Notes under the pieces: model-generated
Databases searched by the model: none
What the model was told of the DNA's origin: nothing
What the model saw: the letters and a program-made list of their open reading frames with translations, nothing else
NCBI GenBank assembly: GCA_964016885.1
Contig: OZ024745.1
Location: forward strand, 74,524,001-74,588,000
Source: Eledone cirrhosa
Lineage: Eukaryota
DNA: 64,000 bases
Reading direction: 5' to 3'
In this document: in pieces, positions 1,123 through 63,584 of the stretch
How positions within the stretch are numbered: the first letter of the stretch is position 1
Layout: every line of letters begins with the position of its first letter
Position numbers and translations under genes: made by a program

Positions 1123-1187
1123 TATTTTGTCTGATGAAGGCATACCATAATTTAATTTGGTATCCCTGAAATATGTATAATGAAATA
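1123..1187 (+). ncRNA. Type I hammerhead ribozyme
   Basis: TATTTTGT-CTGATGA-AGGCATACCA..TGGTATCCCT-GAAA-TATGTA-TA^-ATGAAATA; stems I and II pair, near-palindromic stem III; predicted cut after 1179. Confidence 0.8.
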
Positions 1188-32963: not shown

Positions 32964-33090
32964 GGCACTGGAAACTGAGATCTGATTGAAAATAAAAAAA
33001 AATAAAAAACTTTCTCGAAAACAAAGCTACTGGAAAAACAGAGAGGAGTCTGTTGTTTTTTTTATTACGTACCGCAAGACAAATTAGGAT

Positions 33091-33852
33091 ATGGCGACGA
33101 GACTGCGAACGAGCGAAGCGATTAGGGCATTTACCGGTGAAGGCGATGTTGTCGCTTGGCTGCGAAAAGTCCGGCTGGTCGCAAGCTTACAGAAGATAGA
33201 AGATGTGGCTGGCCTCATGGCACTGTACCTCGAGGGGGACGCGTTGGTACTCTTCCTTGAGTTGGATGAACACAGCCAAAGGGATGCGCAAAAGATTGAG
33301 AGGCGCATGATGGAAGCGTTCGCGGAGGGACTGTTAGCCGCTTTTGCTAAGCTGGCAAGAATTAGATGGAACGGTGAACGCGTTGACATTTTCGCAGCGG
33401 AAATACGGCAATTGGCCATGTTGGCTGGATATCAGGTGGAATGCGAACGCACGGTGCGGTTGGCGTTCATAAATGGATTTCCAGACGACATAGCGGTGAA
33501 ACTGCAGCAAGTCCCGAGTTACAAAGAAATGGAGATGCGTTCACTGGTGGGGCAAGCCCACATCATAACAGAAGATGCCAAGAAGAGTGTCGCGGCGATA
33601 GCAACTACAGAGGTTCAAGACAGCTGGCAGCGAAATGGTGAAAGGGAGGCAACCACGGCACGCGGTAGCCCGCGAACGTTTGGAGGTCGCTGTTTTAGGT
33701 GCCAGGGCCCGCACATGGCGAGAGACTGTAGAGAGTCAAGGCCGGAAATAATATGCTACCGGTGTAAGCGACCAGGCCACATCGCTACTAACTGCAACCA
33801 GGGAAACGATCCAAGGGGAACTACTGCGCCGGTAGTTGCCCCTTACGAGTAG
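33091..33852 (+). CDS. gag: Gag with two zinc knuckles
   Basis: 253 aa intact ORF; CFRCQGPHMARDC and CYRCKRPGHIATNC. Confidence 0.92.
   Translation: MATRLRTSEAIRAFTGEGDVVAWLRKVRLVASLQKIEDVAGLMALYLEGDALVLFLELDEHSQRDAQKIERRMMEAFAEGLLAAFAKLARIRWNGERVDIFAAEIRQLAMLAGYQVECERTVRLAFINGFPDDIAVKLQQVPSYKEMEMRSLVGQAHIITEDAKKSVAAIATTEVQDSWQRNGEREATTARGSPRTFGGRCFRCQGPHMARDCRESRPEIICYRCKRPGHIATNCNQGNDPRGTTAPVVAPYE
33801..33844 (+). promoter_or_regulatory. Predicted -1 ribosomal frameshift signal (gag-pol)
   Basis: G GGA AAC heptamer in gag frame (33801-33807), 5 nt spacer, stem-loop aaggggaactact..ggtagttgcccctt; the -1 frame is open into the protease. Confidence 0.8.
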
Positions 33853-36656
33853 AGGCGCTGCCCGTGGTGGAAGTCTTCGTGAGGGGAAAGCCACAGCGAG
33901 CCCTCGTGGACACGGGCTGTACGACGACACTGGTGACCGCGGGGGTGGCACAGAGATGCAGAGGGAAGAGCAGCGTAAGGGCAGTCGACGGCAGGAAAAT
34001 TGAATGCCGATGTCGCAGCGAGGTGGAGATGGCGGTTCGGGGAAGGAAAATAAGGCTTTCTGCCATCGTAGTTGACAACGTGGTGGATGGGATCGGCGTG
34101 GTTATGGGCATGGACGCAATTGGCCGTCTAGGAGGCGTCACAGTGAACAACGTCGGTGTGTCATTTGGCGGTGCTGCATCGGTATGCGCTGTGAGTGCAC
34201 GTCATGAGAACCAAAAGGCCCACGATGAGAAATACCCCGCTTACACTGTGCAGGACAAAGACTTCAAGGCCGTGTTCGATGGGCAGCGATGGGTTGTTGA
34301 GTGGTACTGGAAGGGAGAACCACCAACACTGAAGACCAAAGTGGGCTGCTATCAACACACATTGAAGGGATGCATTAGGAGCGAGTTCGAGCGAGAGGTA
34401 GAGAGATGGATTGAGGAAGGCATACTGCTTCCCTGGAAAGAGGATGTGAAGTGCGGAGTATTGCCGTTAATGGCGGTGGCGCAACCCACGAAGAACAAGG
34501 TGAGGCCGGTATTGGACTTTCGGGAGCTGAACGAGCACGTGTCATGCCACACGGGTGGCGAGGTCTAGGATGTCTGTGGGGAAACCTTGCCTGAGTGGAG
34601 ACGCATGACGGGGCGTTCCGCAATCGTAGATCTAAAGTCGGCATACTTGCAATTGCATATAGATGAGAAGCACTGGCAGTATCAGCTGGTCAGGTATAAG
34701 GGCCGGACATATTGCCTGACCAGGCTCGGTTTCGGGCTGAGCTCCGCACCGAAGATCATGGCGGCGGTCCTCAAGACCATTCTGGGAAAGGCCGACAAGA
34801 TGAAGAGGGCCACTAATTCCTACATCGACGACATCCTAGTGGACGAGTTTGTAGTGTCTGCAGCGGAGGTCACGAGCCATTTACAGGGGTATAGACTGGC
34901 TGAGAAGCCGTCAGAAGCGTTGGAGGGAGGAGCCGCGCTGGGACTTAAGCAACGGCGAGACAGGACGGGCGTCTTGGTATTCCAGAGGGGAAATGAAGTT
35001 CCAGAACTGGGCCCAAGTATGAGTAGGTGGGAGCTTTTCTCGGTGTGTGGAAAGTTGGTGGGTCACTACCCGATTGTGGGTAGCTCCGGACGGCATGCAG
35101 CTATGTCAAGAGACGAGCGGGCGGGGTGACTTGGAGTGACAGAGTGGGAGAGAGGACGGTGGCCATGATGCAGGAGATCGTGGAGAGGGTGAAGGCCGAC
35201 GACCCAGTGCGGGACGCTGGTATGTTCCCAAATCGCAGAGCGGGGCCGTATGGTGCGATGCCAGCAGCATAGTGCTGGGTGTCACGTTGGAGATAGGAGG
35301 TGTTGAGGTTGAGGATGCAGCCTGGCTTAGGAAAAAGGACGACTGCAACCACATCAATGTGGCCGAACTGGACGCGGTGTTGAGAGGGGTCAACCTCGCC
35401 CTGAAGTGGGGACTGCGCACCATCGAGATACGCACCGACTCGGCTACTGTACTCGGATGGGTGAGATCAGTGCTCACCAGTGAGAAGAGAGTGCGAACGA
35501 GAGGGGCGGCGGAGATGCTGATAAAGCGCGCCTGGGGACTTTAGGAGAGCTGGCCACCGAGTTCGACGTGAGGCTGAGCGTAGTTTTCGTGCCCTCAGAG
35601 AAAAATAGGGCGGACGTCTTAACCAGAGTGAAGAAAGCCTGGATGAAAGCACCGGAGGAGGTAGAAGAGGAGATAGCTGCCGTGTGTCGGCTGACCCAGT
35701 CTGATCTGAAAGGGTTGCATGACATGCACCACATGGGAGTGGATAGGACCCTGTTCCTAGCCAGGAGAATTGACTCGGACGTTAACAGACACAGTGTTCA
35801 AAGGGTGGTTAGAGGCTGCGTCCGATGTCAGTCCATTGATCCCGCCCCGGGTGTGCACGAAACGGCAAGCCTCCCGGTGGATCGCGACTGGAAGCGATTG
35901 GCGGTGGATGTAACGCACTACCGACAGGGAACGTACCTCTCGATGGTTGACTGTGGACCAGGGCGGATGGCGATATGGAGGGAGATGAAGACTGGAACGG
36001 CCGAGGAAATCATGCGGACGTTGAGAGAGGTGTTCTTGGAGCGGGGCCCTGTGGACGAACTGCTGATGGACAACAGCGAAGCGTTCCGCTCGGAGGCGCT
36101 GAGGGAGATGCTCGATGGATGGAAGGTGGACCGTTTCTTCAGAGCAGCGTACAGGCCGAGCAGAAATGGAATTGTGGAGCGACACCACCGGACGATCAAG
36201 ACAATGGTGGAGCGGGGCCACATCTCACCAATGGAAGCAGTGTTCTGGTACAACATGTCCCCTCGGGTGGGGCAGGTTGAGGAATCGGTGCCACACAGAG
36301 CAGTATTCAGATACGAGTGGCGGCACCCGTGCACGCCACCACAATGGCCAGTGGGGAGAGAGAATGCATTCGTGCAGGTGGGCGAAGAAGTCTGGGTTAA
36401 GCCCCCAGATGCACGTTGCACATCTCAATGGGGAAGGGGAACGGTGACGGCCGTAAATTCCCAGAACAACGTGTCCGTGGACGGAGTACCACGTCTTGTC
36501 CTGGATGTCCGTAGAATCACTGTGTCAACGGACTCCGAGGAAGAGGAAACCCAAAGTGCCGCCCCAACACTGCGGAGATCGCAAAGAAGTCGCAAACAAC
36601 CAACCTGGACAGTAGACTTTCATATGCAGAAGGACGAGGGGGAAATTGATCCTTGA
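33801..36656 (+). pseudogene. pol: Disrupted pol (protease, RT, RNase H, integrase)
   Basis: LVDTGC; VRPVLDFRELN and YIDDILV; WCDASS, NVAELDAV, IRTDS; HHCC plus LAVD, MDN, NGIVER. In-frame TAG at 34566-34568 and frameshifts near 35085 and 35535. Confidence 0.93.
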
Positions 36657-50035: not shown

Positions 50036-50106
50036 TGTTTTATCTGACGAAAACACAAATATTATTGCATGATGATATTTGTTTTTGAAATGCGCATAAT
50101 AAAATA
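50036..50106 (+). ncRNA. Type I hammerhead ribozyme
   Basis: TGTTTTAT-CTGACGA-AAACACAAATAT..ATATTTGTTTTT-GAAA-TGCGCA-TA^-ATAAAATA; palindromic stem III. Confidence 0.82.
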
Positions 50107-54101: not shown

Positions 54102-54968
54102 ATACAGCAGCACAGACTCCACTACAGCAATGAAGAGGCGGATTTTCAGGTCTCTACGAAGGTCCGACTTCCACACCGATCTCAAGCTGTGGTACGCCGC
54201 CCAGGCCTTGCTCTTCCTCTCAACCACATCATCTTCCGTATTCCCAATCTTTGCTCCCAAATACAGGAAGTCCTCAACCAATTCCAGCGGCTTTCCGCCT
54301 ACATTAGTGATCCCCTCTGGCTTCTCAACATTCTCTACCAGATATTTTGTTTTAGTCTCATTCATTCTCAGCCCCACACTCATGACACAGTCTCAACCTC
54401 CCGCAACAAATCCTCTGCCTCCTTCACTCTATTTGTCACCAAAACTATGTCGTCGGCAAATTCAGCATCCGATACCTTTTTCGTCCTAACTCTCCTGCTC
54501 TGAGCCGGTGACACAGTAAAGCCAGAGTCCTGGTGTTTCTCCAGTGCAAGGCGCATATGGGTCTGAGACTTGGACACTGACCAAGAAACTCAATCAGATG
54601 GTGGATGGGTGCTACACGAGAATGCTGAGGATGGCTCTGAACATTAATCAGTATACACTGAGGATGAAAAACTCAGAGCTGTATGGGAGCATCCCAAAAG
54701 TCAGCTCAAAAGTGACACAGAGGAGACTGAGGTTGGCTGGACATGCTCACCAACATCCAGAGTTGACATTGCACTCAGTGCTCCTTTGGGAGCCCCTACA
54801 TGGACACACTAGAAGAGGAAGACCAAGGTTTAACGTATGTTGATGCCCTAAGGACAGACACTGGTCTGTTGGAGATGCAGGACATGGCAGCGATAATGAG
54901 GGACAGAAACCGCTGGAGAGAACTCGTCCATGGATCTCGGGAATTTTACCCGCCTTAGATAGATAGAT
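54102..54968 (+). mobile_element. RTE-clade LINE with 5' inversion (copy 1)
   Basis: 54102-54555 antisense (FADDIVL, FLYLGA, ESVLLY); 54556-54955 sense (YGSETW..RRGRP); (TAGA)n tail. Confidence 0.9.
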
Positions 54969-56751: not shown

Positions 56752-58526
56752 ACTCTCGAGACTAAAACATTCGTATTTAACATCTTACGGAAACAGAAGA
56801 AGATAGCCCCAAACCTCTCCAGGACACAACAACTCGCCCTGAAGAACCTACGGAATAGGGAACTTATATACTTACCATCCGACAAAGGTAAAGAGTTTTG
56901 CGTCATCTCTCAAGCCACATACAATAACCTAGCCTTTGAACACCTAAGCGACAGTGAATTATACACAGTGATCCCGGACATGACTGCAGCCCAGATCGAA
57001 AAACAGACCAACTCCATTTGGTTCGATATCTGTAGGAGAAGACAACTCCCAAATAAAGTTAAGCTCAACTACACCACTAGAAATAGCAGACTGCCCACTT
57101 TCTACCACCTCATCAAGACCCACAAGAATAGTACTAAGACGCAAATAAGACCCATCGTCTCTAGCATAGAAGGACCCCTATACAAAATTTCCTGGCTCCT
57201 CTCCCAGGTCCTCAAGCCTCTACTCTCCACCTTTCCCGGGCATGTCAGTAGCTCCGACGAAGTTATACGTAGACTACACCAACTCCAGCCAGAACAACTT
57301 AAACTAAATAAATACGCTTTTAGCCTCGACGTTGTCTCCCTCTACACTACAGTCCCCGCTCATCCAGCTGTCGATTTATTGACGGACTGCGTGGTCGCAG
57401 AGGACATCCACTGCTACGGCCTCCACCCGACGGACATACACCAGCTTTTGTCCTTCACAGTAGACAACACGTACTTCACCTTCCACCACCACACATACAG
57501 ACAGACAACAGGATTACCCATGGGATCCAGCCTATCGGGCCTGCTGGCCATCACCTACATGAACCAGCTAGAATGCCGAGCCCTCAACACCTGCCATTCC
57601 CATGCCTTCTTCACCCGATATGTAGATGACACTCATCCTTACATCATCCCGTGAGGAGGCAGATAAAATATACACAACATTCTCCAGCATGGACGCCAGT
57701 ATAAAGTTCAGCATGGAACACCCCGATGACCGCGGATCCCTATCCCTACTGGACTTCCAACTCAGGGTAACAGAGGAAGGCAACATCCACACCTGCTTCT
57801 ATAAAAAAAGCCACCAGCAGGGACCTGTTCGTACATTTCAGATCGGCCCTCCCTCTCGGTGCCAAGTTCGGATACATAAGGAACGAACTGGCACGTATCC
57901 GGAACAAATGCACCGACGCTAGAGACCGAGACACACACACCACACATTTCCTGGAAGTACTCAAACTGAACGGATACACGACATCCACCACAAACCGTGC
58001 CAGAAAGAACAGAAGACACCACACCCGAGGCACTAACACTTGCTTCCTGAAGCTCCCACACTTCAGTGAAGAAACAACAACAGCCATCCGCAGAGCCATC
58101 AGACGAGAGGGACTGGATATCCAACTGGCCCACTCGGGTCCTTCTCTGCGCGGACGGCTGGCCAAGAGACACTCCACCAGACATGACAACTGCTGCAGAC
58201 TAGCCAACTGCCCCATCAACGACACAGACCTATGCCACCAGGCTTACGTCGTATACAGACTAGAGTGTGACAAATGCAACAACTTCTACGTAGGTAGCAC
58301 CACCAGACCACTCCACATAAGAATAAAAGAACACCTCAATACTAACGCTTCCTCATTTAAGAAACACCTAGCTAAATGCAAAAACACCGACAAAACCATA
58401 ACAGTTAGGATAGAAACTAAGGAAAGAAACCTCGGCAATCTTAGAATTAAGGAAGCACTAATTATAGATAAAACACAACCACCAATCAATAATAGACTAG
58501 AACTCAACACCCAATTTATAACCTGA
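56752..58526 (+). pseudogene. Penelope-like element RT plus GIY-YIG endonuclease, 5'-truncated, two frameshifts
   Basis: PSDKG, LIKTHK, IRPIVS, SLDVVSLYT, GLPMGS, RYVDD; VVYRLECDKCNNFYVGSTTRPLHIRIKEH; stop TGA 58524-58526; shifts near 57630 and 57810. Confidence 0.93.
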
Positions 58527-58902: not shown

Positions 58903-58958
58903 TTTATTTCCCTCTGAAGAAGAGATATTATCTCGAAAATTAAGGACATTTAAATAAA
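58903..58958 (+). ncRNA. Minimal hammerhead ribozyme in PLE 3' pseudo-LTR
   Basis: tttattt.CCT-CTGAAGA-A-GAGATA t TATCTC-GAAAAT-TA^-AGG..aaataaa. Confidence 0.78.
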
Positions 58959-60253: not shown

Positions 60254-60371
60254 CACTGGTCACTTTACTGTGAGTGTCCAAGCTATTCTGTATGTAAACA
60301 CACAGACAAACCGGTTTTTAGAGTTTTTTGAGGAAACACCTTTCCTCTATTCTCCAGAAAGCCAGGCAAGG

Positions 60372-60416
60372 AATATTGAACTAGTTTCGATGTTGTTACA
60401 TCTCATCAGCAATATT
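60372..60416 (-). ncRNA. Type I hammerhead ribozyme (array A)
   Basis: Minus: AATATTG-CTGATGA-GATGT aaca ACATC-GAAA-CTAG-TT^-CAATATT. Confidence 0.9.
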
Positions 60417-61243
60417 TTACCTATCTTCCGGCCTCTCTAGAGAATCGTAAAAGCACATATCGTAATATGCTTTTTTCTATGAAAATTAGTAGTGGGCAGA
60501 CTAATTTGCATAGAAGCGTGAGTACGTACCGGTTCAACGGAGACGATAAAAACAAATAACGAAACGAAATTAAATTTCGTTTCGTTTGTAACTCACTTTT
60601 TGTATGACTGACGCTTAAAACAATTAAGTTAAAAATGTACATCCACATATGTATACTGAATACTAGTATGCATATGAATACACACGTATACATATGTAGA
60701 TCTGCTACGAGTTATCACTGGTCACTTTTACTGTGAGTGTCCAGCTATTCTGTATGTAAACACACAGACAAACCGGTTTTTAGAAGTGGTTTTAGGTAAT
60801 TGTGATGGTAAACAACGAAGTCAATTCCTTGTCTGGCTTTCTGGAGAATAGGGGGAAGGTGTCAGAAAACCAGTATGACTCTAAACGGTTTGTCTGATGT
60901 TGTTACATCACAGCAATATTCTAGGGCCGCTCACTGAAAGGACCAGTGAAAGACTTGGTACACCTACATATGTATACGTGTGTGCTATTAATTATAGCAG
61001 ACTAATTTCAGTATGCATATGTAGATGTACATTTTTACTAATTGTTTAACGCGTCAGTCATACAAAAGTGAGTTACAACGAAACGAAATTTAATTTCGTT
61101 TCGTTATTTGTCTTTATCGTCTCCGCTGAACCGGTGCGTACTCACACTCTATGCAAATTAGTCTGCCCACTACTAATTTTCATAGAAAAAGCATATAACG
61201 ATATGTGCTTTTACAATTCTCCAGAAAGGCCGGTAGATAGGTA

Positions 61244-61288
61244 AATATTGCTGATGAGTTGTAACAATAACGAAACTAGTTCAATATT
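61244..61288 (+). ncRNA. Type I hammerhead ribozyme (array A)
   Basis: AATATTG-CTGATGA-GTTGT aaca ATAAC-GAAA-CTAG-TT^-CAATATT; stem II covaries with the 60372 copy. Confidence 0.9.
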
Positions 61289-61525
61289 CCTTGTCTGGCT
61301 TTCTGGAGAATAGGGGGAAGGTGTTCCCCCGAAAAACCAGTATGACTCTAAAAACCGGTTTGTCTGTGTGTTTACATACAGAATAGCTGGGCCGCTCACT
61401 GTAAAGCGACCAGTGAAAGACTTGGTACACCTACATATGTATACGTGTGTGTATTCATATACACACTAGTATTTCAGTATGCATATGTAGATGTACATTT
61501 TTAACTTAATTATATATATAATATA

Positions 61526-61738
<213 letters not shown>

Positions 61739-61748
61739 TATATATATA

Positions 61749-61811
<63 letters not shown>

Positions 61812-61820
61812 ATATATATA

Positions 61821-61896
<76 letters not shown>

Positions 61897-61965
61897 GGAA
61901 CAATTTTGAATAGCGCCAGTTCGTAATTTGAACTCGGGAATTTTATATTCTCCGAGTGAAAAGAT

Positions 61966-62047
61966 CCTTCTGACGAGAGTTTATCTTTGCAACGGATGCC
62001 GTATGGACTCCGTATATTTTTGAGACTCGAAACCGATTCGGTAAAAG
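61966..62047 (+). ncRNA. Type I hammerhead ribozyme (element B, copy 1)
   Basis: CCTT-CTGACGA-GAGTTT..AGACTC-GAAA-CCGATTCGG-TA^-AAAG; cut after 62043; one stem I mismatch. Confidence 0.82.
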
Positions 62048-62448
62048 TAACCATAGTAAGTAAAGTTAATTTTTTAAAATTTATTTTGAAACTTTTTCTT
62101 ATTTGCTAAACCTTGATTATATATGTTCTGGCTCGTTAATTTATTAACCTGCCATTGAACCACATTGGCATATGGTTGGACAATACATGTGTCCCTTAGC
62201 GCCTTGTGCGTGTAGGAACATATACTCTATTATTACTTATCTCCTCTTGGTTGAGAAAAAATTTGGTCACTCTGACTGCTGCTAGTTATAGCGGGAGCCG
62301 ATTGACCTCCCTGCCTCTGCCTCTATCTTTACACACGGCACTTGAAAGAATTGATTCCACTTCATTTTCTCTCATCTCGGGAACAATTTTGAATAGCGCC
62401 AGTTCGTAATTTGAACTCGGGAATTTTATATTCTCCGAGTGAAAAGAT

Positions 62449-62530
62449 CCTTCTGACGAGAGTTTATCTTTGCAACGGATGCCGTATGGACTCCGTTTAT
62501 TTTTGAGACTCGAAACCGATTCGGTAAAGG
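62449..62530 (+). ncRNA. Type I hammerhead ribozyme (element B, copy 2)
   Basis: CCTT-CTGACGA-GAGTTT..AGACTC-GAAA-CCGATTCGG-TA^-AAGG; cut after 62526. Confidence 0.9.
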
Positions 62531-62599
62531 TAACCATAGTAAGTAAAGTTAATTTTTTAAAATTTATTTTGAAACTTTTTCTTATTTGCTAAACCTTGG

Positions 62600-62647
<48 letters not shown>

Positions 62648-62933
62648 TAATATAATATATATATATATATAATATAATATATATATATATATAATATAAT
62701 ATATATATATAATATAATATATATATATATATAATATAATATATATATGTATATATATATATATATTATATATATATATATATTATATATATATTATATA
62801 TATATAATATAATATATATATATAATATAATATATATATATATATAATATATATATATATAATATATATATATTATATATATATAATATATATATTATAT
62901 ATATATATAATATATATATTATATATATATAAT

Positions 62934-63584
62934 ATCTGAGTGAGTCTCTTGGTCAGTGTCCAAGTCTCAGACCCATACAGCAGCACAGACTCCACTACAG
63001 CAATGAAGAGGCGGATTTTCAGGTCTCTACGAAGGTCCGACTTCCACACCGATCTCAAGCTGTGACACGCCGCCCAGGCCTTGCTCTTCCTCTCAACCAC
63101 ATCATATTCCGTATTCCCAATCTTTGCTCCCAAATACAGGAAGTCCTCAACCAATTCCAGCGGCTTCCCGCCTACATTAGTGATCCCCTCTGGCTTCTCA
63201 ACATTCTCTACAGATGGTGGATGGGTGCTACACGAGAATGCTGAGGATGGGCTCTGAACATTAATCAGTATACATTGAGGATGAAAAACTCAGAGCTGTA
63301 TGGGAGCATCCCAAAAGTCAGCTCAAAAGTGACACAGAGAAGATTGAGGTTGGCTGGACATGCTCACCGACATCCAGAGTTGACATTGCACTCAGTGCTC
63401 CTTTGGGAGCCCCTACATGGACACACTAGAAGAGGAAGACCAAGGTTAACATATGTTAATGCCCTAAGGACAGACACTGGTCTGTTGGAGATGCAGGATA
63501 TGGCAGCGATAATGAGGGACAGAGACCGCTGGAGAGAACTCGTCCATGGATCTCGGGAATTTTACCCGCCTTAGATAGATAGAT
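62934..63584 (+). mobile_element. RTE-clade LINE with 5' inversion (copy 2)
   Basis: 62934-63210 antisense, 63211-63572 sense, (TAGA)n tail; same family as 54102-54968 with a different breakpoint. Confidence 0.9.

Follow-up and report, generated by a model that had tools for sequence, protein, structure and literature searches.

How does a short, non-coding repeat with two hammerhead ribozymes (HHRs) come to lie as about one and a half head-to-tail units inside a (TA)n tract, and could it have been copied there from a circular RNA? The question is raised by a locus in the window, the 64,000-nt stretch of the 3.0 Gb genome of Eledone cirrhosa analysed here (contig OZ024745.1), for which a preliminary description had suggested a retrozyme-like element, mobilised by Penelope-like elements (PLEs) and left by reverse transcription around a 483-nt circle.

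Layout of the window copy

The insertion occupies positions 61894–62607 of the forward strand, on which all of its parts are read, as a single arm of ~1.48 units that is truncated at its 5′ end and stops at its 3′ end in a site that we call A. Direct comparison within the window shows 61894–62124 repeated at 62377–62607 with a period of 483 and 3 mismatches in 231 nt (62014A/62497T, 62046A/62529G and 62116A/62599G); one complete unit (61895–62377, with 61895 as position 1 of our unit numbering) is followed by a second, partial lap (62378–62607, unit 1–230) as a pLTR-like direct repeat. Unstranded (TA)n tracts, the presumed target, flank the insertion at 61511–61894 and 62601–62935, and the terminal copy of site A (62600–62607) is fused to the latter. 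An internal copy of site A, TA-like, lies at 62117–62124, and a second TA-like site, B, at 62220–62240.

Both laps carry an upstream hairpin (61932–61957, second copy 62415–62440; stability z −3.6), whose pair 39/62 is C–G in 125 laps of the family and T–A in 24, followed by an HHR with a predicted cut between unit positions 149 and 150. Cleavage at both HHRs would release a cut-to-cut monomer of 483 nt (62044–62526, 38% GC), for which we calculate a circular MFE of −118.5 kcal/mol (z −3.8 versus 40 shuffles). The element contains no real ORF of at least 150 aa; the preliminary description had noted the absence of a transposable-element protein motif. We likewise re-derived the (TA)n-flanked period of 483, the two same-strand HHRs with their cuts after 62043 and 62526, the ACGGA/TCCGT helix in the long stem II insert and the upstream hairpin, all of which had been described before.

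Hammerhead ribozymes

The two window HHRs have type I topology, rather than the type III of plant LTR retrozymes, and share CTGACGA (at 61970 and 62453), a 52-nt stem II, GAAA, stem III CCG-ATT-CGG and a GUA triplet. Within the long stem II an inner helix (61991–62014, AACGGA/TCCGT.) is capped by a CC-tetraloop-GG hairpin. The 3′ HHR (62449–62530, predicted cut after 62526) has all core bases and stems intact, whereas the 5′ HHR (61966–62047, predicted cut after 62043) has a C–A mismatch in stem I, where 62046A disrupts one of the four pairs, a point absent from the preliminary description. Because of this mismatch the window copy, put forward as a source of circular RNA, is a poor candidate for that role. 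Two adjacent intact HHRs occur in 16 of the 36 arms of the family that cover at least two. An Rfam search, proposed as a check, returned no match to either window HHR at E ≤ 1, probably owing to the 52-nt stem II.

Compensatory base changes support the predicted HHR fold. Stem I changes between UA (27) and CG (8), stem II among GC (27), AU (7) and GU (4), and pair 99/118 of the inner helix is T–A in 101 cases, C–G in 60 and T–G in 14. Across 38 diverse HHR regions, rows that were selected by a core-requiring pattern, 92.8% of cells pair in the named structure versus 22–52% with slid partners, and changes on both sides of a pair, found in stems I and II as well as in the inner helix, fill 25 cells, where shuffles give 8.2 (0/500). 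Pairs that change on both sides number 5, a figure within the range of the shuffles (253/500), so that the compensations represent few evolutionary events. Sequence conservation was assessed in the top-hit loci, which were chosen without regard to the HHR: the HHR core has 9 mismatches in 734 positions, unit 190–298 diverges by 1.7–1.9% and other regions by 3–15%, and none of 35 subfamily-diagnostic sites falls inside the HHR core or inside unit 190–298. The active fold lies above the MFE in both window copies, by 2.6 kcal/mol in the 3′ copy (−34.3 versus −36.9) and by 9.5 in the 5′ copy (−26.7 versus −36.2); folding z scores versus shuffles are −0.8 and −0.5, and family alifold did not recover the active fold.

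Variants of the HHR were seen elsewhere in the family. The tip of the stem II insert (unit 107–110, window 62001–62004) is a GNRA tetraloop, GCAA in 77 laps and GTAA in 33, and the subfamily of the window copy carries GTAT there (63 laps). A diverged subfamily (L223, L232, L237, L244, L272 and others) has a palindromic stem III, CCGCGCGG, with compensatory stems I and II, and might allow dimer cleavage. Nine copies (L161–L169) have a stem II shortened by deletion, several of them between two GACTC repeats.

A dispersed family

A genome search with the unit as query yielded 44 near-full matches at 89–100% identity among the best 40 of 2,707 candidates. An exact HHR-core pattern matched at 457 places, the exact 3′ terminus (site A running into TA) at 1,014 and read-through copies of site A at 702, each with 0 matches to the reversed control. 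The 457 versus 0 core matches, together with an identical architecture on many contigs, exclude chance and the assembly artefact against which the preliminary description had cautioned. Subfamilies only ~80% alike exist, as read from printed sequences and from pieces at 77–85% identity. Arms range from 0.1 to about 3 laps, and a 2.5-unit query found no copy beyond ~3 laps among the best 40 of 2,832 candidates, well short of the long tandem arrays of a satellite. The genome-wide search for permuted multimers, proposed as a check, found dispersed multi-lap copies whose 3′ end is fixed.

At the loci checked, element ends never ran directly into a PLE ORF, the tblastn matches being separate neighbours, which speaks against the constantly ORF-attached pseudo-LTRs that had been considered as an alternative; nor does the element have the reverse transcriptase (RT) plus GIY-YIG ORF between pLTRs that defines an autonomous PLE. 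The window element can be classed as a member of a repeat family that is non-coding, carries hammerheads and is dispersed through the genome. In a sequence run of a second organism, from another study, short pieces are ~90% like window 61890–62610, and related elements may therefore exist in another species.

Fixed ends at two internal sites

We examined insertion ends in 80 loci picked solely by an intact HHR core (75 analysed, 5 complex ones excluded), in 74 further stretches selected by an A end, and in the top-hit set (24 loci, after removal of 2 duplicates and 4 complex ones). Among 46 single arms of the HHR-selected loci, the 3′ end is A in 40, B in 1 and elsewhere in 5, and all 29 head-to-head loci of this set join one A arm to one B arm. 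An inverted arm was detected at 20 termini of the A-selected stretches, with a B end in 19, and the 8 inverted loci of the top-hit set comprise 5 A+B, 2 A+A and 1 other; one excluded complex locus (L011) runs against the A+B rule, combining an A arm with an arm that ends at 473. Site A lies at unit ~230, 81 nt downstream of the predicted cut, and site B at unit 326–346. Both are TA-like and fused to (TA)n: at least two TA units directly follow 114 of 136 3′ ends, and (TA)3 adjoins 50 of 62 single-arm 5′ ends.

With a 3′ end fixed at A and variation limited to the 5′ end, the element is no random permutation of its unit. Of the ‘circularly permuted 1.5-mer’ proposed for the window copy, the variable 5′ end stands and the free 3′ end does not, this being fixed at unit position ~230. 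We read the fixed ends best as target-primed internal start sites, with first-strand priming at A and, in the head-to-head copies of the family, second-strand priming at B. PLE-type traits of the family are a truncated 5′ end, partial tandem copies, inversion of a 5′ arm and a tail at one end. The possibility that, on the circle, the A arm and the B arm obstruct one another was dropped, as the arms usually overlap (by eye).

A Penelope-like element of matching geometry

The genome contains 10,595 GIY-YIG candidates, and the 483-nt family co-occurs with autonomous PLEs, as retrozymes do. One autonomous family (L141; G000:C1:145869500-145878500) has RVT_1 and GIY-YIG in a single frame of 938 aa from stop to stop, named homologues that include bivalve proteins, and the linker CxxxxCxxC, ascribed to Neptune/Nematis PLEs in the part of the literature consulted (PMC8557442). 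The HHR-like motif in its pLTR, with 6,770 pattern matches in the genome, marks a very abundant, young PLE; it shares the CCTT/AAGG stem I and the GUA triplet of the 483-nt element, but at core positions 3 and 8 it has U and A where C and G are usual. Hammerheads with this U3–A8 pair can work; our literature search for a U3A8 hammerhead core returned nothing.

Copies of L141 end at +82 and +150 from the HHR-like cut site, compared with +81 for site A of the 483-nt family, and its head-to-head pairs join A to B in 14 of 17 (22 unique of 30 loci). At the other end 21 of 36 arms stop at −74 to −60, a pile-up that likely marks the 5′ end, or start, of a linear transcript. The fixed A and B ends, the head-to-head A+B copies and the recurrence of this pattern in L141 together support the earlier suggestion of a retrozyme-like element mobilised by PLEs, and we consider PLE-type mobilisation of the 483-nt family highly probable.

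L141 appears to display the mechanism itself and is a candidate partner of the family; it is not proven as such, because nucleotide homology beyond the HHR motif did not rise above shuffles in six PLE pLTR alignments. Aligning the unit to 50 GIY-YIG loci by blastn gave only weak matches (best 43 nt, E 0.013), and a short-stem-II pattern, tried as a route to the parent PLE, gave 9 matches that were all deletion variants of the 483-nt family. A frameshifted PLE (RVT_1 then GIY-YIG), not contiguous with the 483-nt element, lies at window 56752–58526; by eye it is near-identical to a PLE in L151, and an HHR-like CTGAAGA...GAAA stands near it at about 58914–58945 (by eye).

Circular or linear template

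The whole explanation that we favour, as probable though well short of certain, is that of a dispersed non-LTR retrozyme mobilised in trans by a PLE, with a circular 483-nt RNA as the probable template. The transcript of a copy whose two HHRs are both intact would cleave itself and be ligated to a circle; a PLE protein with RT and GIY-YIG would nick (TA)n, and the nicked strand would prime at A, 81 nt past the cut, accounting for the fixed end. Reverse transcription would then cross the ligated junction and continue over a variable distance, giving the observed 0.1 to about 3 laps, after which the cDNA would either join the other target end or be accompanied by a second strand primed at B on the same RNA, giving the observed head-to-head A+B copies.

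Alleles speak to the number of templates per insertion. At the 35 diagnostic sites, tandem laps within an insertion agree in 842 of 868 comparisons (505 expected) and inverted arms in 497 of 514 (295 expected), counted without 9 complex loci and homopolymer zones; with the zones included the counts are 1650/1735 and 1003/1081. We count this agreement in favour of one template per insertion and of a circle, as we do the twelve different haplotypes that are identical across laps (18 arms). A circle is also favoured by the 99 A arms described below, of which 86 cross the cut site and 18 cross two. On the opposing side, at least one of 13 sites differs in 13 of 31 multi-lap arms, and three loci (L010, L015 and L058) look chimeric.

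The strongest rival also invokes a PLE-driven family, with uncleaved linear read-through RNA of multi-lap donors as the template, extra laps that are regenerated only occasionally and an HHR that acts at another stage. It can appeal to work in vitro in which, in the parts of the study consulted, unprocessed RNA was the dominant insertion substrate and HHR cleavage was dispensable for PLE insertion (PMC11167929), to the autonomous PLE of this genome, whose copying continues past the uncleaved HHR-like motif as far as −70, and to an active HHR fold that is not the MFE. Arm lengths lend it some support as well. The 99 A arms (of the first 100 listed A ends; two segments in this sample are duplicates, and one arm breaks off at a gap) have a median of 323 nt, 3 exceed 800 nt, and the stopping hazard climbs with length from ~0.1 to 0.3 per 50 nt. 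Several arms end at 685–770 nt; six of the nine past 670 nt do so at 685–710, where none of the HHR-selected set ends, and one locus (L262) reaches 1,191 nt. The rising hazard would also fit finite linear donors, and slower second-lap copying during strand displacement could produce it too.

Other counts weigh against linear donors. Laps are concordant over at least 12 haplotypes and in subfamilies just ~80% alike, and lap-specific alleles common to several loci are shared by 2–3 loci at most, homopolymers excluded. Private alleles present in both laps number 18 in 14,330 tandem positions, at least as many as the 4 in 9,053 of inverted arms, where linear donors predict the reverse. Long donor arrays were not found among the best 40 of 2,832 candidates, nor was a fixed 5′ stop, the densest 15-nt window holding 10 of 104 5′ ends (at 363–377; null P 0.24, not significant), in contrast to the pile-up of L141 arms at −74 to −60. 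We therefore regard linear read-through as unlikely, though a serious competitor, and a circular template, with the RNA circle that it predicts, as the more plausible case on balance.

If the template were instead a cleaved linear monomer, RT would have to jump from its 5′ end to its 3′ end in imitation of a circle, for which a few chimeric arms and 5′ ends that are slightly over-represented at the cut site (7/104, p 0.02; a count that also speaks against a circle) could be cited. The first cut site, however, stops only 3 of the 89 A arms at risk, and the junction is free of scars, with 152 of 183 laps exact at the cut and 6 indels in 1,482 positions, below the background of 0.9%, which makes such jumping improbable. 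Least probable of all, and largely refuted, is an origin of the copies as pseudo-LTRs truncated from an autonomous PLE, as a DNA-level satellite or as an artefact: the anatomy is pLTR-like and the genome PLE-rich, but the arms run on into the same non-coding unit, which was not joined to a PLE ORF in the loci checked, the copies are dispersed with few laps, and the window laps differ by substitutions in a layout that recurs across contigs.

Returning to copying from a circle, we put forward more tentatively, and as a reading that may well prove wrong, that the insertions of this family preserve, across the genome, traces of target-primed reverse transcription around a rolling circle, in which a PLE dimer would prime both nicked (TA)n strands, each at its own site, A first and B second, on one circular RNA. 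Were this true, the tail of PLEs, their inverted pLTRs and the tandems of retrozymes would be products of one mechanism, with retrozymes using circles and their autonomous partner linear RNA.

Other elements in the window

Between the (TA)n tracts at window 60264–61510 lies a second, unrelated HHR-bearing element with a period of about 462–467 nt in head-to-head arrangement, possibly a second retrozyme family. It has HH9-like matches below the gathering score at 61233–61304 (+) and 60356–60424 (−), a 7-bp stem I and a minimal stem III, and part of it recurs at L151:6938-7157. Candidate minimal HHRs with a palindromic stem III at 1131–1179 (+), 50044–50098 (+) and 50486–50442 (−) resemble motifs in L146, L149, L157 and L159. 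LTR-retrotransposon-like fragments (zinc knuckle, aspartyl protease and integrase) occupy 33088–36656, and a GC-richer fragment between (TA)n tracts at 62936–63574, whose 3′ part recurs near 54900, looks by eye like a LINE remnant.

Relation to known systems

The preliminary description held the unit to be larger than known monomers. This is so against the ~170–400 nt given for metazoan non-LTR retrozymes (Cervera & de la Peña 2020, PMC7229834); the range of 51–972 bp in a recent survey (Li, Clavereau & Pollet 2026, bioRxiv 10.64898/2026.07.22.740005) includes it, both ranges being taken from parts of these papers. With non-LTR retrozymes, as portrayed in the same portions, the family shares a non-coding tandem unit, a type I HHR, a GC content below 45% (here 38%), co-existing PLEs and a proposed mobilisation by a circle and reverse transcription (PMC7229834; bioRxiv 10.64898/2026.07.22.740005). 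It differs in its dispersed copies of 0.1–3 laps, with long arrays not found, in its 52-nt structured stem II, and in its fixed A and B ends and (TA)n targeting, which do not appear in the portions of the published accounts consulted.

EN+ PLEs of the Neptune/Nematis type, for which we drew on parts of four papers (Craig 2021, PMC8557442; Arkhipova 2013, PMC3846280; Frangieh 2024, PMC11167929; Cervera 2014, PMC4209133), likewise show 5′ truncation, partial tandems and an inverted 5′ arm, an optional tail at one end that is set by two internal RT start sites (PMC3846280, PMC8557442, PMC11167929), AT-rich or (TA)n targets, and, upstream of these start sites, an HHR whose helix I has 4–5 bp. In contrast to these, the 483-nt element has no ORF, and its tail is about 100–115 nt rather than 30–40. 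The PAc PLE, in the data consulted, starts at a site non-homologous to the cut DNA and in vitro uses the same start site for both strands, whereas the start sites here are TA-like, matching the target, and the second arm holds almost all uses of B.

Non-autonomous PLEs of Chlamys (MRC1; PMC8557442) are similarly non-coding, pLTR-forming and multicopy head-to-tail, but their 3′ end resembles an autonomous family, and their clade is described in the section consulted as lacking canonical HHRs; the 483-nt element matches a PLE only in the HHR stems and the cut-to-A spacing. In plant LTR retrozymes (PMC4918200, PMC6765202), too, a non-coding core is flanked by two direct repeats that carry HHRs. 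As far as these accounts were consulted, they have a type III HHR, fixed LTR ends, PBS/PPT, a 4-bp TSD and a Gypsy partner, in contrast to the type I HHR and ragged 5′ ends of the 483-nt family, in which a TSD is unreadable inside (TA)n.

The combination of a circle with reverse transcription was proposed earlier (PMC7229834, PMC4209133), and a PLE origin of retrozymes has been argued from 31 vertebrates, 3 insects and 1 anthozoan (bioRxiv 10.64898/2026.07.22.740005). How the circles of animal retrozymes return to the genome, and how tandem and inverted copies of PLEs arise, are treated in the consulted parts of this literature as hypotheses or open questions (PMC7229834, PMC4209133, PMC8557442, bioRxiv 10.64898/2026.07.22.740005). 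Our literature search found neither the 483-nt family nor start sites assigned to strands, and supplements, Repbase or Dfam may hold the family.

Set against these systems, the element is best identified as a non-LTR retrozyme that would work like a non-autonomous PLE, with all the sequence-level retrozyme features that we tested. As this class of element is already known and the window copy is partly decayed, what the family offers is less a novel type of element than predictions that can be tested. Its roughly one thousand young insertions make these base-exact, with priming at +81 and about +180 to +197, one priming site per strand and read-through of the junction, and a candidate partner PLE of matching geometry resides in the same genome.
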